64,000 nt of DNA. It comes from a bacterium (GTDB lineage: Bacteria; Patescibacteriota; Minisyncoccia; Phycocordibacterales; UBA2100). Under the pieces are notes generated by a model. It searched no databases, was not told where the DNA came from, and saw only the letters and a program-made list of their open reading frames with translations. The stretch is taken from assembly GCA_016789445.1 (NCBI GenBank), contig JAEUQT010000001.1, forward strand, positions 1,308-65,307. Reading direction: 5' to 3'. Positions 4,466-63,815 of this stretch are shown here, in pieces. Position numbers and translations under genes: made by a program. Within the stretch, counting starts at the first letter, position 1, and each line of letters starts with the position of its first letter.

Positions 4466-4624
4466 GCTCGGTCACGGATAATTTCCTCGCCGACGCTCGG
4501 GAATTTCCGCGACCCCGGCTCGCGGTCCTGCCTGCTAGCGGGACATCGCTCCGCCTTTCGAGTCTCTCACAGACAGCGCATTGGCGCTGTCTTTTCCGGC
4601 ACCGCTTTCGCGATGCTCAATCGG
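4466..4624 (-). repeat. Type-A composite structured repeat, immediately downstream of tRNA-Leu(CAA)
   Basis: Contains GACTCGAAAGGCGGAGCGATGT...CCGCGAGCCGGGGTCGCGGAAATT...ATTATCCGTGACCGAGC and the hairpin GACAGCGCcaatGCGCTGTC. It is near-identical in architecture to 19041-19196. Confidence 0.75.
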
Positions 4625-4800: not shown

Positions 4801-5544
4801 ATGCTGAAACTCGAATCGTTCCAGCGCATACTCCCCGCCTTCGACAAGAGCTCGATGCTCGTCAAAGACTACGAGCTTCTCGAGATGCTCTATCCGTTCA
4901 TCGGCGGCGTGAAGATCGGTCTGGAGGCCATCAACGCTCCGATGCCGGATCACTCGATGCATGTCGGTGACAATCTGCGGAAGTTCGTGCAGACCCGCGC
5001 CGTACCCGTGATGTGGGACGTCAAACTGAACGACATCCCCAATACGGTCGGCGGCGCAGTTGCCAACATTACGCGTAAGCGGGTGTGGGGTATCACGGTC
5101 ATGGCGAGCGCCGGTATCGACGCAGTACGGGCAGCGGTCGCTAAGCGTGCGGATGCGAATATCATCGGCGTCACGGTTCTGACGTCGATGTCACCCGAGG
5201 AGTGCAAAGCCATCTACGGTCGCATTCCAACCGCGCAGGTTTCGTATTTCGCGGAGACTCTCTTCGAAGCTGGCGCGCAGGCAATCGTCTGTTCCCCGCT
5301 CGAGCTTGAAGTCGTCCGGAAAACGATCGGCGACAAGCTGTTCTGCATCACACCGGGAATCCGTCGAAAAGACGCTCCGGCTGACGACCAGAACCGCACG
5401 ATGTCTGCAGGAGACGCCATCAAGGCGGGTGCGGATTACCTCGTCATCGGCCGCCCTATCATGGGCGCGGAGGATCCGGCGGGAGCGGCACGCGCCTTCT
5501 GCGACGAAATCGCAGCGGCAAGCGCTAACCTCTCGATGGTCTAG
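4801..5544 (+). CDS. pyrF: Orotidine 5'-phosphate decarboxylase
   Basis: AGGTGA RBS then ATG at 4801. Product MLKLESFQ...KDAPADDQNRTMSAGDAIKAGADYLVIGRPI matches OMP decarboxylase signatures. The ORF-track start at 4393 would run through the antisense of tRNA-Leu and is not credible. Confidence 0.85.
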   Translation: MLKLESFQRILPAFDKSSMLVKDYELLEMLYPFIGGVKIGLEAINAPMPDHSMHVGDNLRKFVQTRAVPVMWDVKLNDIPNTVGGAVANITRKRVWGITVMASAGIDAVRAAVAKRADANIIGVTVLTSMSPEECKAIYGRIPTAQVSYFAETLFEAGAQAIVCSPLELEVVRKTIGDKLFCITPGIRRKDAPADDQNRTMSAGDAIKAGADYLVIGRPIMGAEDPAGAARAFCDEIAAASANLSMV

Positions 5545-5640
5545 TTCTTTCAACTTCACAGGCGGCCGCAAGGTCGCCTGTTTCTTTTTGCGCATGCACG
5601 CGGTATGCTCGCTGAGGTCAATAGAAACAGGAGTCAGACC

Positions 5641-6309
5641 ATGAGTGAACAATCCGTCTGGGATACGCTCCGAGATATGGGAGCAATCCTCAAGGACGAC
5701 CACTTCGTCTACACTAAGGGCGGCCACGGCAGCGAGTACGTCAACAAGGACGCACTTTTCATGCATCCCGCGGGCTTCTCGAAACTCTGCAGCATGATCG
5801 CTGACGAGTTCCGGGATATGTTCGGGACTCCGCTTCCTGATGTGGTCCTCGGACCAGCGGTTGGCGGCGCGCTTGTCGCGCAGCAGGTCGCATACCATCT
5901 CGGCGCGAACTCTCGATCGAAGCCATTGGCTATTTACGCCGACAAGGAAGGTGATGGATTCGTCCTAAAGCGCGGATACGATGAAAAAGTGCCGGGCAAG
6001 AAGATCCTTATCGTCGAGGATATCCTCAACACCGGAGGTTCCGTGAAGCAGGTTGTCGAACTTGCACGTACGCATGGCGGCGACGTCATCGGCGTCGGCG
6101 CCATCTGCAATCGTGGCGATGTGCGCATCGTCGACATCGGCAAGCCACCGAAATTATTCAGCGTCGTCTCGACGCGGATGGTCATGTACGATTCCAGCCA
6201 ATGTCCGCTCTGTGCGGAAGGGCGACCGATCAATACCAAGATCGGCAAAGGCAAGGAATACGTCGAGAAACACGGCCAGCCTAAGGTTCCTGATTACGAA
6301 GATTCCTAA
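5641..6309 (+). CDS. pyrE: Orotate phosphoribosyltransferase-like (type I PRTase)
   Basis: AGGAG RBS then ATG 5641. PRPP-binding motif ILIVEDILNTGGSVKQVVE. It is adjacent to pyrF. Confidence 0.75.
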   Translation: MSEQSVWDTLRDMGAILKDDHFVYTKGGHGSEYVNKDALFMHPAGFSKLCSMIADEFRDMFGTPLPDVVLGPAVGGALVAQQVAYHLGANSRSKPLAIYADKEGDGFVLKRGYDEKVPGKKILIVEDILNTGGSVKQVVELARTHGGDVIGVGAICNRGDVRIVDIGKPPKLFSVVSTRMVMYDSSQCPLCAEGRPINTKIGKGKEYVEKHGQPKVPDYEDS

Positions 6310-7530: not shown

Positions 7531-7672
7531 GGTCACAACTCTCACTCTCGCCGTAGCTCGAGTTCGGTCGCGACCCCGCCTCGTCCGTTTCGCCTACTGG
7601 CGAAACATACCTCCGGCTCCCGCAAAAGCACAAAGACAGCACGCAGGTGCTGTCTTGTGTGTATTTTGCGGG
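7531..7672 (-). repeat. Type-A structured repeat (reverse orientation) in the 3' region of the AOX-like gene
   Basis: Reverse complement reads CAAAA-ACACACAAGACAGCACctgcGTGCTGTCTTTGTGCTTTTG...ATGTTTCGCCagtagGCGAAAC-GGACGAGGCGGGGTCGCGACC...GTGACC. The same modules occur at 19684-19890. Confidence 0.7.
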
Positions 7673-8688: not shown

Positions 8689-8828
8689 TAACGAGGATCG
8701 GAAGAGAAAGCTTGCTTTCTCTTTCTCCGAGTGACGGGTTCATACGATCCTCTAGTATGGACCCTTCGGGACTGAGTATAGAACCTGGAATGCTAAGCGC
8801 CAATACGCACCACGTGCACCACTAGCAG

Positions 8829-8910
8829 ACTTTGGAAACCCTCGGTTTTCCAACGCTCGCTTCTCGCTGCCTTCCGACACGGGGAACTCCCGTTCCCCGA
8901 CCCCCTCCCG
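8829..8910 (-). repeat. Type-B structured repeat (copy B1) between rpmG and tRNA-Trp
   Basis: Reverse complement reads GGAGGGGGTCGGGGAACgggaGTTCCCC-GTGTCGGAAGGCAGCGAGAAGCGAGCG-TTGGAAAACCGAGGGTTTCCAAAG. It is paralogous to 16126-16273, 55682-55803 and 61916-62003. Confidence 0.75.
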
Positions 8911-16125: not shown

Positions 16126-16273
16126 CGTGCGCAGCAGCGCACGGGCGGAGGGGGTCGGGGAACCGCCATCGGTTCCCCGTGTCGGAGAGCAGGGCGGCGA
16201 GCGAAGCGCTGCCGTCCGTTGAGAACCGAGGGTTCTCAAAACGAACCGCCGGACTGGCCGGACGGTTCGTTTC
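16126..16273 (+). repeat. Type-B structured repeat (copy B2) in the divergent intergenic region upstream of infB
   Basis: GTGCGCagcagCGCAC hairpin, then GGAGGGGGTCGGGGAACCgccatcGGTTCCCC-GTGTCGGAGAGCAGGGCGGCGAGCGAAGCGCTGCCGTCCG-TTGAGAACCgaggGTTCTCAAAA. Confidence 0.75.
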
Positions 16274-18160: not shown

Positions 18161-18195
18161 GGCCACGTGGTGAAGGGGTACGAGTCTGCACAATC
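18161..18195 (+). pseudogene. Partial 5' copy of tRNA-Cys (pseudo-tRNA fragment)
   Basis: GGCCACGTGGTGAAGGGGTA-C-GAGTCTGCAcaatc matches the first ~40 nt of the intact tRNA-Cys 83 nt downstream, with a 6-nt deletion. It has no 3' half. Confidence 0.7.
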
Positions 18196-18316: not shown

Positions 18317-18372
18317 CCGTTTTTGCAAAACCGCTACTGGATGGGTGAGACGGGGTTGGGGCCCCGTCGCAA

Positions 18373-18436
18373 GGCCGGAGACGCTCGGCGTCGAGGCGGG
18401 GTCGCGGAAATTTTCAGCAGAAAATTATCCGTGACC
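18373..18436 (+). repeat. Type-A structured repeat (minimal module)
   Basis: GGCCGGAGacgcTCGGcgtCGAGGCGGGGTCGCGGAAATTTTCagcaGAAAATTATCCGTGACC. Confidence 0.75.
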
Positions 18437-19040: not shown

Positions 19041-19196
19041 ATTGAGCAGAGCGAAGCTGTGTCGGGGAGAACAGTGCCGACGCACTGTTCGGGTGGGACT
19101 CGAAAGGCGGAGCGATGTTTCGTCAGCAGACGAAACCGCGAGCCGGGGTCGCGAAAAAGTCTGCACGACGGTGCAGACTTTATTCGTGACCGAGCC
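19041..19196 (+). repeat. Type-A composite structured repeat, immediately downstream of tRNA-Leu(TAA)
   Basis: GATTGAGCA...GTGTCGGGGAGAACAGTGCcgacGCACTGTTcggg-GACTCGAAAGGCGGAGCGATGTTTCGTCagcagACGAAACCGCGAGCCGGGGTCGCGAAAAAGTCTGCACgacgGTGCAGACTTTATTCGTGACCGAGCC. Confidence 0.8.
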
Positions 19197-19683
19197 AAAC
19201 GGAATCAAAACGAGCTCTTTGCCGAGTCCTTCTCCCGGCAGCGAAAATTGTTTACACAAGATTCTTGAATCGCTCTTTCAGGAGTCGATATCTACGAATC
19301 GTATCGGGTTGCGAAAGAACACGCCCACTGTCTCTCTCTTCTCCTTCAAGTTGTTGAAACGTGAGGTCTGAATATTGGTCCTTTGTAAAATCAATCTGCG
19401 TTCCGTCTGCGAGAGCGTTCCAGTAATGTGAGCGCAAATGCGCATATTTAGATATATGTGCCAGTGAACCGCACATCAACTTACCACCCAAGTATTCCTG
19501 CGCTAAAACAGAAGCAACTGCACAATGTCCCCACAATGGATTGTGTTCTGTCCAATGTTTCGGATCTGCAGATGTGTCGCGCTGCGCGACATTTCTCAGT
19601 ATTCGTGAGAATGTGTCTCGATCGACTGTCATATCTAGCACTAATTAGCTTGATAATATCATTCCTTATCTTCACGGATATTT
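19197..19683. other. Low-GC islet between tRNA-Leu(TAA) and tRNA-Lys, flanked by type-A repeats
   Basis: GC visibly about 45% versus about 60% for flanking DNA. One hypothetical gene (19252-19641). Confidence 0.5.
19252..19641 (-). CDS. Hypothetical protein in a lower-GC islet between tRNA-Leu(TAA) and tRNA-Lys
   Basis: 129-aa ORF. The local GC (~45%) is clearly below the window average. Confidence 0.5.
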   Translation of the reverse strand: MLDMTVDRDTFSRILRNVAQRDTSADPKHWTEHNPLWGHCAVASVLAQEYLGGKLMCGSLAHISKYAHLRSHYWNALADGTQIDFTKDQYSDLTFQQLEGEERDSGRVLSQPDTIRRYRLLKERFKNLV

Positions 19684-19890
19684 CTTGCCCGACGGTGCAA
19701 TAAATTCCGCGACCCCGACTCGCCGCTCCGGCAGCTGCCGGAACATCGCTGCGGCTCGGACGAGTCCTCAAAGATAATGTTCTCGCCGTCGCTCGAAAAT
19801 TTCCCCGAGCCTGGCTCGCGGTTTTGCGTGCTCGCAAAACATCGCTCCGCCTCGGACAAAAGCACAAAACCTCCCACAGGGGAGGTTGTT
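19684..19890 (-). repeat. Tandem type-A structured repeat modules immediately downstream of tRNA-Lys
   Basis: Reverse complement reads CAAAAGACACAACAACCTCCCctgtGGGAGGTTTTGTGCTTTTG-TCCGAGGCGGAGCGATGTTTTGCGagcacGCAAAACCGCGAGCC...ATTATC...GAGCCGCAGCGATGTTCCGGCagctGCCGGAG...GTCGGGGTCGCGGAATTTATTGCACC. Confidence 0.75.
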
Positions 19891-29603: not shown

Positions 29604-29619
29604 TAGTTGAGCTTCGCAA

Positions 29620-29683
29620 GGCCGGAGGCGCTTGGCGCCGAGGCGGGGTCGCGCAAAATCGCAGTAGCGATTTATGCGTGACA
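29620..29683 (+). repeat. Type-A structured repeat (minimal module) after rpsA
   Basis: GGCCGGAGGCGCttgGCGCCGAGGCGGGGTCGCGCAAAATCGCagtaGCGATTTATGCGTGAC. Confidence 0.75.
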
Positions 29684-35648: not shown

Positions 35649-35777
35649 GCCGTGTGTATAAGCCTCATCTGCATCGTTGCGGGGCCCCTACAATTTCCTC
35701 ATCGTACCTAAAAGTACGACTCGAAAATTGTCTTCCCCGCGTCTCACATCTGAAGCTTCTCCACACCGCCTAATTTC

Positions 35778-40184: not shown

Positions 40185-40308
40185 ACGCGATCTGACGCAG
40201 GAATGCGGTAGATGCGAGGCGCGGGGAAAGCGGCGACGGAGACGTACCTGCGCGCACGATGACGTCGACGCAGGGGTCCCGCAACGATGCAGATGGCGTA
40301 TTCCCGCG

Positions 40309-45069: not shown

Positions 45070-45087
45070 CCACTCAGCCACCTCTCC
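45070..45087 (-). pseudogene. Partial 5' copy of tRNA-Ser (first 18 nt) followed by a strong hairpin
   Basis: Reverse complement reads GGAGAGGTGGCTGAGTGG, then GGATGAAATGCCGTTGACGGCTTTTCATCC. It lies 150 nt upstream of the intact tRNA-Ser on the same strand. Confidence 0.65.
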
Positions 45088-48349: not shown

Positions 48350-48488
48350 ATATATTGAAGATTCTACCGCTTTGGACTATACTGCGCCACACGATTCCTA
48401 GGGGAATCAAGCTTAGCGCGCTTAGCTCCGGCGGATGACGCTGATATGCCAGGCTGGGCGAGCACGAGACTGAAAGTGAGAAAATAAC

Positions 48489-48560: not shown

Positions 48561-48605
48561 CATGAGACACAAAACCTGCCCTGCGGCAGGTTTTGTGCCA
48601 TGTGC

Positions 48606-48762
48606 GAGCCGGAGCGATGTTCCGCCAGCAGGCGGAACCGCGAGGCCGGGTCGGGCGGCAGTTTGCGCGACGGCGCAAGCTGAATGCCTGACCACACATG
48701 AAAGACCGGCGAGACGGGGTCGCGAAAAAATTCGCCTGACGAGGCGGATTTTATTCGTGACC
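48606..48762 (+). repeat. Two tandem type-A structured repeat modules downstream of tRNA-Val
   Basis: GAGCCGGAGCGATGTTCCGCCagcagGCGGAACCGCGAGGCCGGGTCGGGCGG..., then GAGACGGGGTCGCGAAAAAATTCGCCtgacgAGGCGGATTTTATTCGTGACCGATCC. A 15-bp direct repeat TGAATGCCTGACCAC at 48681 and 48818 brackets the second module. Confidence 0.75.
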
Positions 48763-48844
48763 GATCCTTTCTGCTCCATCGCGACGGCGACGGGAATCTC
48801 TGTGACCACTGAGAATTTGAATGCCTGACCACGAGCAACTCTTT

Positions 48845-55681: not shown

Positions 55682-55803
55682 CAGAATCTCCGAAAGGTTC
55701 CGGAGATTCTTTGAGAACCCTCGGTTCTCAACGGGCTATTTCGCTTCGCTCATAGCCCTGCTCTCCTACACGGGAAAACTACAGTTTTCCCGCCCCCTTT
55801 CGG
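55682..55803 (-). repeat. Type-B structured repeat (copy B3) abutting the 5' end of tRNA-Phe
   Basis: Reverse complement reads GGGGGCGGGAAAACtgtagGTTTTCCC-GTGTAGGAGAGCAGGGCTATgagcgaagcgaaATAGCCCG-TTGAGAACCgaggGTTCTCAAAGAATCTCCggaacctttcGGAGATTCTG. Confidence 0.75.
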
Positions 55804-55820
55804 GCAGACTATACCATTTC

Positions 55821-59124: not shown

Positions 59125-59165
59125 TCCGAAAGTATATCCTGAGACCGAAACCCAATCTATTCGGG

Positions 59166-59236
59166 TGCGGGATACGAGAATCGAACTCGTATCTACTGCT
59201 TGGGAAGCAGTCGTTCTACCACTAAACTAATCCCGC
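59166..59236 (-). tRNA. tRNA-Gly (anticodon CCC)
   Basis: Reverse complement reads GCGGGAT-TA-GTTTAGTGGTAGAAC-G-ACTGCTTCCCAAGCAGT-AGAT-ACGAGTTCGATTCTCGT-ATCCCGC-A. Confidence 0.85.
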
Positions 59237-59337
59237 GTTCCTATCGTGCGAATACATCCTGACAACGGCACCCGGCCCTGCTCTCATATCATCCGCCGAA
59301 ACTAATCCCGTTTCGCGCCAACTATAGCAAAGCGGAT

Positions 59338-59891: not shown

Positions 59892-59990
59892 ATCACGCAT
59901 AAATCGCTGGTGCGATTTTGCGTGACCCCGCCTCGCAGCCGAGCTGCTCCGGCCTTGCGACGGGGTCCCAACCCCGCCTCACCTCTGCGT
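59892..59990 (-). repeat. Type-A structured repeat (reverse orientation) downstream of lepA
   Basis: GTCACGCATAAATCGCtggtGCGATTTTGCGTGACCCCGCCTCGCAGCcgagCTGCTCCGGCC is the reverse complement of the consensus seen at 29620-29683, with a compensatory loop change. Confidence 0.75.
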
Positions 59991-60077: not shown

Positions 60078-61865
60078 TTACTCTTCACCACCTTTCACGA
60101 CTTTCAGGAAAACATCGTGCGGGATGTCCACCTTGCCGCGCGCGAGCATGCGCTTCTTACCCTTCTTCTGCTTCTCGAGAAGCTTCATCTTGCGGGTGAT
60201 ATCTCCCCCGTAGAGGTAGCCGGTGACATCCTTGCGCATCGCACTCTTGCGGCGCGAAGCGACGATATGGCCATCGGATTTCGCTTGGATCTTGAGCTCG
60301 AACAACTGCTTCGGGAGCAGCTTCTCGAGCTTCTCGACGAGCGACTCCGCTTCGGTACGCACACGACGCTTCGAGACGATTCGTGCAAAGGCGGGAACCA
60401 ATTCGTCCGCAACCAGCACATCGAGACGGACGACATCGGCGGTGCGCAGACCCAACAGTTCGTATGAAAGCGACGCAAAACCGGAAGAGACGCTCTTCAG
60501 GCGGTCGAAGAATCCGCGCATCAACTCACGAAGCGGCATCTCAGCGGAGAGCTTGATCTTGCCGTCGGCCAAGGTCTCGGTCTCACCCACTACGGCTTCG
60601 TGATCGAAAAGGATCTGGGTGATGCCCCCGATATATTCAGACGGCGTGATGAGCGAGATAGCCGCCCATGGCTCACGCACCGATTTGAGCGTTCCATCGT
60701 CCGGGAAACGCGCGGGATTATAGATCTCTTCCACGCCGGTGTTCGTGGTGATCTCGTAGACCGTCGTCGGCATCGTGACGACGAGCGGGAGACTGAATTC
60801 GCGCTTCAAGCGCTCGACGATGATTTCCAAGTGGAGCATGCCGAGGAATCCGCAGCGGAATCCCTTGCCCATGACGCCGCTTGATTCTTCTTCGTAGGAG
60901 AGCGACGAATCCGAAAGTCGCAATCGTTCCAATGCTTGGCGCAACTGCACGAGATCATCTTGGGATTCCGGATACACCGATGCCCAGATGACCGGCGCCG
61001 GCTGGCGGTACCCGCCGAGTGATTCCGCCGACATACGTGCGGCGACCAACGTATCGCCGACACTCGCGATACCCGGCTTCTTGATACCGGTGACGATGTA
61101 TCCGATCTCTCCTTCACTGAGGCTCGCCCGCGGTTCTTCGTCCGGAGAGAGGATGCCGACTTCAAGCGCCGTGAATGTCGCGTTCGCCGCAGCGAGTTTC
61201 AAAGAGTCCCCCTTCGCGACGCTTCCGCCGAAAAGGCGGCAATAGATGATGACGCCGCGATGATCGGAGTACGAGAAATCATAGATGAGCGCCTGCATCT
61301 TGTCTCCTGTCGCCTGTGGTGGCGGTACACGCTTCACCACGGCATCAAGCAGCTCTTTGACGCCGAGACCCGTCTTTCCTGATGTCGCCAGGATCTCGCT
61401 CTCATCGCAATTCAGAAGCAGAGCGATCTCGCTCTTCACATCATCGACGCGCGCATGCGGCGCATCGATCTTGTTCACTACGGGGATGATCACACGATTG
61501 AGCTCTCGGGCCGTCGAAAGGACGGAGAGCGTCTGCGCTTCGATGCCCTGCGTCGCATCGACGAGAAGCACGACGCCCTCGACTGCGGAGAGCGCACGCG
61601 AGACTTCGTAGGCGAAGTCGACGTGACCCGGCGTATCGATGAGATTGAGTACGTACTCGGAGCCGTCCACCTTCCAGTTCATGCGGACCGGCTGCATCTT
61701 GATGGTGATACCGCGCTCGCGCTCAAGATCCATACGATCAAGGACCTGCGCCTTCATCTGGCGCTTCTCGATGGTGCCCGTGAGCTCGAGCATGCGGTCG
61801 GCCAGGGTCGATTTCCCGTGGTCGATGTGCGCTATGATCGAAAAGTTTCTGATATGTGAAGACAT
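60078..61865 (-). CDS. lepA: Elongation factor 4 (LepA)
   Basis: MSSHIRNFSIIAHIDHGKSTLADRMLELTG, G-domain, EF-G-like domains and the LepA C-terminal domain. 595 aa. Confidence 0.95.
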   Translation of the reverse strand: MSSHIRNFSIIAHIDHGKSTLADRMLELTGTIEKRQMKAQVLDRMDLERERGITIKMQPVRMNWKVDGSEYVLNLIDTPGHVDFAYEVSRALSAVEGVVLLVDATQGIEAQTLSVLSTARELNRVIIPVVNKIDAPHARVDDVKSEIALLLNCDESEILATSGKTGLGVKELLDAVVKRVPPPQATGDKMQALIYDFSYSDHRGVIIYCRLFGGSVAKGDSLKLAAANATFTALEVGILSPDEEPRASLSEGEIGYIVTGIKKPGIASVGDTLVAARMSAESLGGYRQPAPVIWASVYPESQDDLVQLRQALERLRLSDSSLSYEEESSGVMGKGFRCGFLGMLHLEIIVERLKREFSLPLVVTMPTTVYEITTNTGVEEIYNPARFPDDGTLKSVREPWAAISLITPSEYIGGITQILFDHEAVVGETETLADGKIKLSAEMPLRELMRGFFDRLKSVSSGFASLSYELLGLRTADVVRLDVLVADELVPAFARIVSKRRVRTEAESLVEKLEKLLPKQLFELKIQAKSDGHIVASRRKSAMRKDVTGYLYGGDITRKMKLLEKQKKGKKRMLARGKVDIPHDVFLKVVKGGEE

Positions 61866-61915
61866 ACATTACGCAGTGTACAGAAGCATGGACTTGAGAG
61901 CGCACATTGTTCGAA

Positions 61916-62003
61916 AGGGGTCGGGAAAACTGTAGTTTTCCCGTGGAGGAAGGCAGGCCGCTGTGCGGCCGTTGGAAACCGTGGGTTTCCAAGGAGCCGT
62001 GGT
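61916..62003 (+). repeat. Type-B structured repeat (copy B4) inserted between the lepA start and a duplicated lepA 5' fragment
   Basis: GAAAGGGGTCGGGAAAACtgtagGTTTTCCC-GTGGAGGAAGGCAGGCCGCtgtGCGGCC-GTTGGAAACCgtggGTTTCCAAGG. Confidence 0.75.
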
Positions 62004-62018
62004 TGCGGCGACGATGGG

Positions 62019-62054
62019 TGCAATGATCGAAAAGTTGCGGATGTGGCTGGACAC
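62019..62054 (-). pseudogene. Duplicated, diverged 5' fragment of lepA (12 codons, GTG start) fused in frame to repeat B4
   Basis: GTGTCCAGCCACATCCGCAACTTTTCGATCATTGCA encodes MSSHIRNFSIIA, identical to the LepA N-terminus, with 9 synonymous nucleotide differences from the current gene. The frame then reads through repeat B4 to a stop at 61869. Confidence 0.65.
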
Positions 62055-62093
62055 GGGCTCAGTGTGCGCTAAAAACCGCTGAAAAACAAGGTT

Positions 62094-63815
62094 TTAAGCC
62101 GTTTGTTCGGCAGAACTGACTGGTTCGACATCGCGCCAGATACGGCGCCGCAGCGCTTGGGCGTTTTCTGCGTATTCCCTGCTGCCGAGGACGAAATAGA
62201 CCAGCGTCGCCGCCATGCAGCCGATGAGGCCCGCAGCTCCGCCCTTCAGCATCACGGAGAGAAGCGTCGAAGAGAGCGTGATGTCGCCGATGATATGCAA
62301 AGTGGCATATGCCGCTGCTCCGGCCGCAAATGCAGCCGCCAGCGATTCCCCGAGTGTCCGTCCGATCTCCGAAAAGAAGGTACCGAAGCGTGCTTGGAAG
62401 TAGAGCGCGAGCGCGAGCGCACCGGCGACGGACGCAATCGCATAGGCCAATGGAAGCATCAGGATCTGGGTACCGACGAGATCTTCGACACGCAAGAATA
62501 CTTCCAGGAAATCATTCGTCCCCCCGTGCTGCACCACACTCAAGAGCTTCACCCCAAGTACGACCGTAAGAACGGCGGAGAACCCTGAGATGACGAACGG
62601 CACCAGGGTCTTTCCCGAGGCATAGCAGGCACGGATAAGAAGGAGCGAGAGACCTTGTGCGGCAAGTGAGATCACGAAGAGCGCGAGCGCCGCCGCAGTC
62701 AGGCGCGTATCGGTCCAATCGAATGCGCCGGAGCCTAGGATGGCGCGTACGATGTGCGCACGCAGCACGACGACGAGCGCGATCGCGGGGAACGACCAGA
62801 AGAGGATCTGGCGGGCCGCGATACTGAGCTGCGCCATGAAGACATCGCTCTTCCCTTTCGAGAACGCATAGGCCAGCGTCGGGAACGCGGCGGTTGCGTA
62901 ACTGGCACCGATGATCGCGAGCGGAACCCCTTGCAGGTTATAGGCGAAGGTAAATACCGAAATCGAGCCCGCAGAGAGCGTCCCCGCTAATGCCAGGAGC
63001 GCGAAGAATGCCATTTGATTCATGGAAAGCGCGAGTGCACGCGGTAGAGAAAGCCTGATCGTCTCAAGAAACGAACGCATCTCGGACAAGACCGGCATAT
63101 GTCGCAGGTAGCCATCGTACGCGATTGAAGGCAGTTGAATCACGAGGTGCGCTGCCGCACCGATGACGACGCCCCACACCAATCCGGTGAGGCCGTACGC
63201 CGGATACAACACCCACGCGCCGAAAATGATACCGAGATTGTAGACCAGAGGAGAGACCGCGTAGAGCGCGTAGCGATGCTTGAATTGTGTCACCGCTGCC
63301 GCTACGTTTGAGAACCCTAAAAGAACCGCCTGCAGCAAGAGGATGCGTGTAAGTGTGACCAATTCATCGAGAGAACCGTTCGCCACGAGGACGGGAAACG
63401 CTTTCGCGAGAAGCCATGGTGCGGCAAGCGATGCGACCGATCCTACCAAAGCGACCAAGAGACCGAATCCTGCGACCACACTGTCGAGGTAGCGACGCTG
63501 TGTCGCGCCGTCACGTCGCGCGAGCTCCGGGATCAGCATGTACGCACTCACCAATGCACCGATACCGATGAAGACCGCGTCCGGTATGCGGAACGCTGCG
63601 TAATAGATATCGAGCTGCGTTCCGGCGCCGAAGAGGTGCGCGAGCAGGCGGTCGCGCAGCAAAGCAAGCAGCGATGAGAGCAGCGATGAAAGCGCGAGGA
63701 TGTACGCGGCTGCTTGGAGGCCGCGCACTTCGGTCGTGAGGAAGGCGAAAGCCTTCCCTGCGCCGGTATAGGTCTTACGGATGGTATCTCGTCCGGAGCG
63801 CCAGAGCATCATCAT
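62094..63815 (-). CDS. murJ: Lipid II flippase MurJ (MviN family)
   Basis: 573 aa with about 14 TM helices. MurJ-like N-terminal block ...LLRDRLLAHLFGAG...DIYYAAFRIPD. Confidence 0.8.
   Translation of the reverse strand: MMMLWRSGRDTIRKTYTGAGKAFAFLTTEVRGLQAAAYILALSSLLSSLLALLRDRLLAHLFGAGTQLDIYYAAFRIPDAVFIGIGALVSAYMLIPELARRDGATQRRYLDSVVAGFGLLVALVGSVASLAAPWLLAKAFPVLVANGSLDELVTLTRILLLQAVLLGFSNVAAAVTQFKHRYALYAVSPLVYNLGIIFGAWVLYPAYGLTGLVWGVVIGAAAHLVIQLPSIAYDGYLRHMPVLSEMRSFLETIRLSLPRALALSMNQMAFFALLALAGTLSAGSISVFTFAYNLQGVPLAIIGASYATAAFPTLAYAFSKGKSDVFMAQLSIAARQILFWSFPAIALVVVLRAHIVRAILGSGAFDWTDTRLTAAALALFVISLAAQGLSLLLIRACYASGKTLVPFVISGFSAVLTVVLGVKLLSVVQHGGTNDFLEVFLRVEDLVGTQILMLPLAYAIASVAGALALALYFQARFGTFFSEIGRTLGESLAAAFAAGAAAYATLHIIGDITLSSTLLSVMLKGGAAGLIGCMAATLVYFVLGSREYAENAQALRRRIWRDVEPVSSAEQTA

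Follow-up and report, generated by a model that had tools for sequence, protein, structure and literature searches.

A 189-nt block at the start of lepA in a Patescibacteriota genome: a probable small mobile cassette that rebuilds the gene it interrupts

To our knowledge, the replacement of a gene end by an inserting element has so far been known from kilobase-sized prophages and conjugative elements that carry their own integrases. The SXT/R391 elements are ~100 kb long, encode a tyrosine integrase and an excisionase, and are located at the 5′ end of prfC; as Hochhut and Waldor reportedly described in 1999, SXT supplies a new 5′ coding end and promoter and the gene stays functional. Classical integrations at tRNA genes are kilobases long and replace the 3′ part of the gene. 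Among short dispersed sequences such as repetitive extragenic palindromes and bacterial interspersed mosaic elements (REP/BIME), enterobacterial repetitive intergenic consensus (ERIC) sequences and repeats resembling miniature inverted-repeat transposable elements (MITEs), we know of none with a copy of a neighbouring gene's end. In the Escherichia coli icd gene, the end of a coding gene is duplicated across e14 (and phage 21), leaving the icdC fragment as a pseudogene, and the e14-borne icd end contains mostly silent changes such that the product is almost unchanged (PMC13626634). Here we describe a 189-nt block at the start of lepA (elongation factor 4) in a 64,000-nt stretch of DNA (the window; GenBank assembly GCA_016789445.1, contig JAEUQT010000001.1, positions 1,308 to 65,307 of the forward strand) from an ultra-small bacterium of the Patescibacteriota (Phycocordibacterales, UBA2100). 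The block is probably a short insertion cassette that moves horizontally and restores the interrupted gene.

The lepA gene lies on the − strand and encodes 595 aa from an ATG at 61865. A GTG at 62054 on the same strand, 189 nt upstream of this ATG, opens a 61-aa open reading frame (ORF) whose residues 1–12 are those of LepA (MSSHIRNFSIIA). An initial annotation of the window had reported this fragment as differing by silent changes alone, and codon comparison agrees, although a recount of the first 36 nt gives 10 differences in seven codons (GTG/ATG included) rather than nine. The only long identical block between the two starts is AACTTTTCGATCAT (62036–62023 and 61847–61834). Past residue 12 four more codons are weakly alike (PIVA versus HIDH; 8/12 nt), after which the frame diverges and, as initially described, runs through a type-B repeat, ending at a TAA 3 nt before the lepA ATG. 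The N-terminal MSSH is common to this genus-level group, and its retention accounts for the silent-only divergence of the starts. No protein among 5.8 billion resembles the 61-aa product, and it is nowhere a called gene. A search for recurrence of terminal peptides (N or C, at least 9/11 residues within 700 nt) among window ORFs of at least 90 aa finds lepA as the sole case with zero false positives, so the match is beyond chance. The annotation had named a chance short motif as a possible objection and had proposed a search for other genes with duplicated ends.

Eight further public contigs encode exactly this LepA protein, and five independent ones among them (L001–L005; same species, 99.7% identical) constitute the empty-site strains. 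In all five the block is absent and lepA starts at the upstream GTG, 39 nt past murJ, whereas the murJ–lepA gap in the window is 228 nt. They match the window through the end of murJ, the 39-nt leader and GTG TCC AGC CAC ATC CGC AA, continue with T TTC TCC ATT ATC, and rejoin it at GCG CAC ATC GAC… of the resident lepA. Thus 202 nt in the window (62034–61833) replace 13 nt of the empty-site strains, a net gain of 189 nt, and the site is an insertion polymorphism within the species. Over its first 20 nt and the 39-nt leader the fragment is identical to the working start of these strains, and it is therefore the native lepA start. Window and empty-site strains differ by ~25 single-nucleotide polymorphisms (SNPs) in 9.7 kb against 4–5 differences in the 13-nt junction patch alone, so these belong to the insertion event. 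The cassette replaces 13 nt within lepA codons 7–11, the native leader and nt 1–20 are stranded upstream as a dead-end fragment, and the recoded codons 1–11 of the cassette join the native body in frame with the LepA sequence unchanged.

These strains bear out the initial proposal that an element or recombination event exchanged the 5′ end of lepA and pushed its original start aside, since the GTG start serves lepA in five block-free contigs. The proposal had allowed for replacement of the whole gene, which is rejected: the lepA body has 11 SNPs in ~1.8 kb relative to the empty-site strains (~99.4% identical) and the protein is identical, such that only nt 1–33 are foreign. It had also assigned the fragment to a functional lepA allele unlike the resident one; the fragment does derive from a functional allele, but it is the native piece and the resident start is foreign. 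The empty site is not a simple deletion product, as a crossover joining the two cores would leave …AAC TTT TCG ATC ATA… and not the empty-site sequence; this also weighs against a duplication in place. The components of the locus are as follows.

62094–63815 (−): murJ, the upstream neighbour, with its stop 39 nt before the native lepA start; an ORF with PF03023 (MurJ) identified on the L001–L005 homologue.
62055–62093 (−): native murJ–lepA leader (…TTGTTT-17 nt-CACACT-GAGCCC), 100% identical to L001–L005 and kept upstream of the fragment.
62035–62054 (−): displaced native lepA start, nt 1–20 (GTGTCCAGCCACATCCGCAA), the working start in the five empty-site contigs.
61833–62034 (−): 202-nt segment in place of 13 nt (TTTCTCCATTATC), from the alignment and indel map against the empty-site strains.
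62023–62036 (−): left copy of the 14-nt core AACTTTTCGATCAT, corresponding to lepA codons 7–11 in the cassette spelling.
61996–62022 (−): decayed lepA-like arm (TGCACCCATCGTCGCC…), 27 nt, with codons 12–16 A-P-I-V-A versus A-H-I-D-H.
61905–61995 (−): type-B structured repeat, 91 nt, with hairpins TTGGAAACC/GGTTTCCAA, CCGC/GCGG and GGGAAAAC/GTTTTCCC and conserved linkers.
61866–61904 (−): cassette-borne new leader, 39 nt, holding the TAA (61869–61871) that closes the 61-aa ORF.
61833–61865 (−): recoded type II lepA start (ATG TCT TCA CAT ATC AGA AAC TTT TCG ATC ATA), with the right core at 61834–61847.
60078–61832 (−): native lepA body (Pfam domains of elongation factor 4), fused in frame to the cassette start.
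61825–62076 (−): 252-nt tract identical to metagenome contig L103, whose flanking murJ and lepA are 78–85% identical.

The fragment is a mosaic of native nt 1–20, a cassette-type core and the old decayed arm. Because this 27-nt lepA-like arm lies between the left core and the type-B repeat, the repeat is not exactly at the junction as the initial annotation had it. The type II start has a GC content of 30% compared to 48% for the native start, and the insert folds strongly (z = −3.5). There are no terminal inverted repeats in the insert, only internal hairpins and a 9–11-nt leader complementarity, and there is no target-site duplication; the insert takes the place of 13 target nt, and the repeats on either side of it do not match the empty-site sequence.

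The CACACTG motif just before the start is conserved in all relatives except L095, whose upstream region differs. The native leader is a putative promoter, although a scan for consensus promoters finds no site in it, and the new leader has no significant homology to it. The native leader and lepA nt 31–39 have 9 nt in common (TAGCGCACA; p ~0.01), which is suggestive only. In the new leader, ATGTGCGCT (61899–61907, − strand) is complementary to AGCGCACAT at lepA nt 33–41 (61825–61833) and, at 10/11 positions, to AGCGCACACTG in the native leader (62060–62070), with ~0.1 such 9-mers expected by chance; this pairing could occlude the region just past the start codon or bridge the two leaders.

As to the affinities of the two starts, the fragment matches its own species and the resident start resembles that of 90–91% relatives. 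Type I-like starts are present in L001–L009, L093 and L102 (LepA 92–100% identical), 5–6 nt after CACACTG. In L010, L011 and L012 (90–91% relatives) lepA has no start other than type II (ATG TCT TCA CAC ATC AGA AAC TTT TC…), from which the window copy differs at 3–4 of 33 nt, with a single difference from L012 in the first 29. In these three relatives the start is preceded by a 56-nt segment with a B-like first hairpin (TTGGAAAGCAAAGCTTCCAACGG); with a B-like hairpin before each of them, the type II start thus travels together with a B-type hairpin. A scan of a genome collection with LepA yields mostly distant loci (up to 74% identity) and one added B-like copy, in L014; the exact MurJ of the window finds nothing as a query.

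The region upstream of lepA varies among relatives (39, 90, 95, 194 and 228 nt) and seems to be a hotspot for small elements of several kinds. A different element is located upstream of lepA in L095 (a 90% relative; 2807–2930), bounded by inverted repeats GAGTTTGGCGA…TCGCCAAACTC, and its motif GCTGCATCGTTGCGGG resembles an inverted-repeat pair at window positions 35666–35722 and 40239–40295.

The whole arrangement is also present in a more distant lineage. L103, a Joint Genome Institute (JGI) metagenome contig with LepA 90% identical and the same 228-nt murJ–lepA gap, matches the window base for base over the 252-nt tract, comprising leader, type I fragment, core, arm, B repeat, new leader, type II start and GCGCACAT. 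A run of this length within flanks 78–85% identical has a chance of ~1e-23, and all 32 informative sites in the interval (32/32) are window-type, whereas those elsewhere are mixed. The window, L103, L010 and L012 represent roughly equidistant lineages. A block of 100% identity inside ~80% flanks shows that the block, fragment included, has moved horizontally and recently across ~20% sequence divergence; because the empty-site strains of the window's own species have the identical leader and nt 1–20, this left part is native to that species and the L103 lineage must be the recipient. An assembly chimera, the other objection that had been raised, is rejected, since L103 and a Logan contig (L104, from four samples, with the right half of the arrangement) are both independent of the window.

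We propose that the cassette spreads when incoming DNA recombines through its two lepA-like ends, or through the murJ and lepA flanks, acting as homology arms. If the incoming DNA comes from a genome in which the site is already filled, a double crossover that exchanges once within the fragment and once within the working start would produce the exact swap of 202 nt for 13 nt with both cores cassette-type. The cassette was probably founded by recombination at the 14-nt core, either site-specific or by short homology, between lepA and DNA containing a mimic of the lepA 5′ end beside a type-B repeat. Thereafter, only the part of the mimic that became the new gene start would remain under protein-level selection, which would explain full synonymy up to the core and decay directly after it. 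An excised 189-nt circle, if there is one, would have the junction …ATCAGAAACTTTTCGATCAT|TGCACCC….

Type-B repeats constitute a dispersed family with four copies in the window plus one each in L014 (a 74% relative, just 3′ of lepA) and L102 (at the start of the contig). The other window copies are as follows.

8826–8910: type-B copy adjoining tRNA-Trp.
16143–16243: type-B copy between iscS and infB.
55708–55805: type-B copy adjoining tRNA-Phe.

In the two alignable hairpins of five B copies, 98.7% of cells are paired and four pairs are changed on both sides, with every slid control far lower; with multiple copies, conserved linkers and compensatory changes, type B behaves as a dispersed structured repeat. 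Rfam has no family for the B unit, as only tRNAs pass the gathering score and the best hit within 61850–62100 has E = 3. On the opposite strand, the conserved B linker CTGCYYTCC..CAC (e.g. window 61945–61958) gives GGAGG/GGAGA after hairpin 3, a purine-rich sequence that resembles a Shine-Dalgarno site. A phage origin is rejected: the four viral-contig hits to a degenerate pattern cover only the hairpin-3 module, as hairpin + GGAGG + ATG gene starts (e.g. L108 3027–3064), and the viral collection, scanned for exact matches, contains neither the type II start nor B hairpin 3 nor the type-A module, and no full B unit. Short-read contigs of related strains repeatedly start or end inside type-B or type-C units (L099–L101 start at window position 16179, L099 and L100 end at 18372, and L102 and L104 start in B hairpin 3), such that insertion differences at the population level may be under-sampled.

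A layout like that at lepA is present at four of the 13 window tRNA genes, each with a copy of its own 5′ end directly after a −10-like box and the intact gene further downstream, separated by inserts of 60–148 nt.

18161–18180 (+): tRNA-Cys 5′ copy, 20 nt, 83 nt upstream.
45070–45087 (−): tRNA-Ser 5′ copy, 18 nt, 166 nt upstream.
48416–48428 (+): tRNA-Val 5′ copy, 13 nt, 73 nt upstream.
59299–59310 (−): tRNA-Gly 5′ copy, 12–13 nt, 74 nt upstream.

The boxes look like the native −10 boxes, and all four copies begin at +1 (within one base), which argues against target duplication by a transposase. For tRNA-Val and tRNA-Gly alike, the fragment breaks off at nt 13 and runs on into one shared 10-mer, CGGCGGATGA (48429–48438 and 59289–59298), and decayed tandem tRNA copies are therefore rejected as the source of these two. 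The tRNA-Gly 5′ insert is present in the window, L001 and L010 and absent from the 97% relative L006, while L093 has a different, shorter half-copy; the tRNA-Cys insert is fixed in the sampled sister strains L098–L100. For the tRNA-Ser and tRNA-Val regions no contig of a sister strain was found, and the DUF817 neighbour of tRNA-Ser finds nothing as a query. Within a strongly diverged leader in L010 (a 91% relative; 5495–5517), GGGATTAGTTTCGGCGGATGATA is perfectly conserved, which suggests that this block is under constraint. Duplicated fragments go unmentioned in a paper that describes group I introns of patescibacterial tRNA genes. The initial annotation had linked the lepA block to 5′ tRNA fragments, and the similar layout is confirmed at these four genes, although a mechanism in common is only plausible.

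At the 3′ end of tRNA-Gly, L010 has a 150-nt type-A insert (5632–5798, relative to window 59164–59180) flanked by a 17-nt direct repeat, ATTCTCGTATCCCGCAC, for which the window, L006 and L093 are exact empty sites; its arrangement is the mirror image of the tRNA 5′ layout. Types A and C have a module in common (GAGSCGGGGTCGCG-hairpin-ATKCGTGAC), and their copies in the window are as follows.

4466–4607: longer type-A copy directly 3′ of tRNA-Leu-caa.
19054–19195: longer type-A copy directly 3′ of tRNA-Leu-taa.
19672–19852: longer type-A copy directly 3′ of tRNA-Lys.
48601–48767: longer type-A copy directly 3′ of tRNA-Val.
59894–59981 (−): type-C structured unit, 88 nt, ~96 nt 3′ of the lepA stop.
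18344–18434: related type-C copy just 3′ of tRNA-Cys.
29614–29682: related type-C copy.

The type-A copies come from a repeat scan, in which all four of the longer ones lie directly 3′ of a tRNA gene and two short module-sharing matches lie at 920–978 and 7587–7634; no tRNA 3′-end duplicate (at least 13/14 nt) is found beyond the four tRNA-adjacent type-A copies. Independently of the lepA block, the type-C unit 3′ of lepA gives a second presence/absence polymorphism: the window and L003 (with an empty lepA 5′ site) have the unit, whereas L001, L002, L004 and L005 lack it; it has no target-site duplication or terminal inverted repeat, and its empty site is AGAGGC|TCCGC. In L102 (LepA 99% identical; 1–110) the 3′ end of a type-B repeat is located upstream of lepA, its visible 28 nt equal to the window lepA copy, and past it are a hairpin (CTTTTCTGTTTGAAACAGAAAAG) and only the last 20 nt of murJ; this piece may be a displaced murJ 3′ end, the contig starting inside the B repeat.

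Small structured units are thus common at gene ends in the clade, often accompanied by a copy of the end concerned, and it is plausible that the lepA and tRNA cases reflect one mechanism. A broader view, possible but on balance doubtful, is that the clade hosts a class of miniature non-coding gene-end replacement cassettes that home by ordinary recombination without an enzyme of their own. Each would consist of a structured repeat (A, B or similar) plus the working end of its target gene, with the lepA start, tRNA 5′ or 3′ ends and the murJ 3′ end as targets. Rebuilding of the gene would make insertion nearly neutral, and cassette and displaced fragment would provide two homologous arms for homing into any related genome; if so, these are selfish elements that use the ends of essential genes as homing arms.

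Several observations weigh against interpreting the lepA block as a gene-rebuilding mobile cassette. Where the core stands in the window, the empty-site strains carry AATTTCTCCATTAT, mismatched at 4/14 positions (all synonymous), so that the same core expected of an empty attB site is not found there, although the allele that in fact received the insert may have been a different one. This known empty allele does not fit a simple reciprocal crossover, with the junctions at nt 20/21 on the left and at nt 33 or beyond on the right, and only one type of filled allele is known. No recombinase, integrase or transposase is present among the 40 window ORFs of at least 150 aa scanned with Pfam, nor is there a RAYT- (REP-associated tyrosine transposase) or IS200-like gene among them, and the 189-nt insert is itself too small for a recombinase gene. 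The B copies at 8826–8910, 16143–16243 and 55708–55805 have no gene-end duplicate alongside, such that B may be a passenger and not the active part. The openness of the frame across the insert is not significant, as 20% of shuffles also stay open; stops are absent from every frame, and selection to keep one open is unsupported. A scan of the cassette for sigma-70-like promoters finds none, and transcription of lepA is thus probably read through the fragment and the B hairpins from the native promoter. Of the features of att-type integration the locus has the direct-repeat core at both junctions and the element-borne, gene-restoring end, and lacks the recombinase. It has neither terminal inverted repeats nor a target-site duplication equal to the empty site, and the two repeats differ by, among others, C/T, G/C and C/A changes at sites that are not adenines in one copy or the other, inconsistent with a diversity-generating retroelement (DGR). 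The block is not a strict-sense MITE, not a DGR pair and not a known ribozyme or intron.

The combination of a direct-repeat core, an element-borne recoded end and a decayed arm past the core is classic att-junction anatomy, and could be what is left of a prophage or integrative and conjugative element with a tyrosine integrase that entered the 5′ end of lepA, bringing a replacement start as SXT does at prfC, and then lost its interior, leaving attL, B and attR. We regard this as unlikely, since a larger form is present in none of ~20 related lepA contigs, the identical 189-nt form is found in two lineages, the scanned window ORFs include no integrase, and neither the type II start nor the full B unit nor the type-A module is matched in the viral collection; at least five other 60–150-nt inserts of like layout in the clade would each require near-total deletion. 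Improbable too is a one-off scar of illegitimate or homology-assisted recombination with no element involved, in which a relative's B repeat, leader and lepA start were taken up by homology at one end and microhomology at the other, B being an unrelated resident of the donor's lepA upstream region. Recombination across ~20% divergence is directly shown at this locus, the 90–91% relatives natively hold a B-like hairpin between the leader and the type II start, and the upstream region is variable in length and content. However, the insert opens with cassette-type codons 7–11 and the decayed arm, so a lepA fragment must have stood upstream of B in the donor beforehand, and the origin is shifted one step earlier without being explained; furthermore, the recurrence of the layout at four tRNA genes, and the common 10-mer following the tRNA-Val and tRNA-Gly fragments, indicate a recurring process.

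An in-place tandem duplication, with the upstream copy kept as a regulatory upstream ORF or leader peptide mimicking the LepA N-terminus, would suit the conservation of twelve codons at the protein level only and an ORF that crosses the insert without interruption and closes 3 nt short of the lepA ATG, an arrangement suited to translational coupling. It is very hard to reconcile with the 99.7% identical strains that use the upstream start for lepA without the block, with the match of the downstream start to another clade's start, and with fragment codons 1–7 being simply the native gene; moreover, the open frame is not significant, and its product neither resembles another protein nor is called as a gene. 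A mobile cassette that rebuilds lepA remains the interpretation we consider probable.

If correct, this would show the gene-end replacement strategy in a 189-nt non-coding unit, in the start of a translation factor and in extremely reduced genomes. The coding target makes the case readable, because silent differences identify the end as cassette-borne and not as a target-site duplication; at tRNA targets, where both copies must be identical, a cassette-borne origin is unreadable. Bacteria of the candidate phyla radiation (CPR) are thought to depend on DNA uptake, and a tract of ~250 nt recombined between CPR lineages ~20% apart is direct evidence of gene flow in an uncultivated group. In practical terms, such blocks yield false upstream ORFs, shifted annotated starts and broken assemblies.

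Among the described systems, the type-A, -B and -C units are like REP/BIME, ERIC and MITE-like repeats in being short, multi-copy, intergenic and strain-variable with compensated hairpins, although the lepA insert departs from such dispersed repeats in having no terminal inverted repeats and no target-site duplication. A swap of the 5′ region by homologous recombination would give a similar tract of identical leader and start within ~20% diverged flanks, but the lepA tract is not a clean upstream swap, as 189 nt are gained, the old start persists as a fragment and the first 11 codons change their spelling. Islands and prophages in tRNA genes are flanked by a short identical stretch of the target gene, which is made whole again at one of the two ends, a look that the type-A insert at tRNA-Gly in L010 shares, whereas the window tRNA inserts displace the 5′ part and are only 60–148 nt long. 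In contrast to SXT/R391, the lepA cassette is 189 nt long, encodes nothing, has no integrase in view and has a known empty site without the same core. The likeness to e14 extends to the element-borne gene end, the silent differences and the displaced fragment; however, e14 is a 15-kb prophage that targets a 3′ end and has its own recombinase and SOS-induced excision, whereas the lepA insert is tiny and located at a gene start, such that it must also cope with the initiation of transcription and translation.

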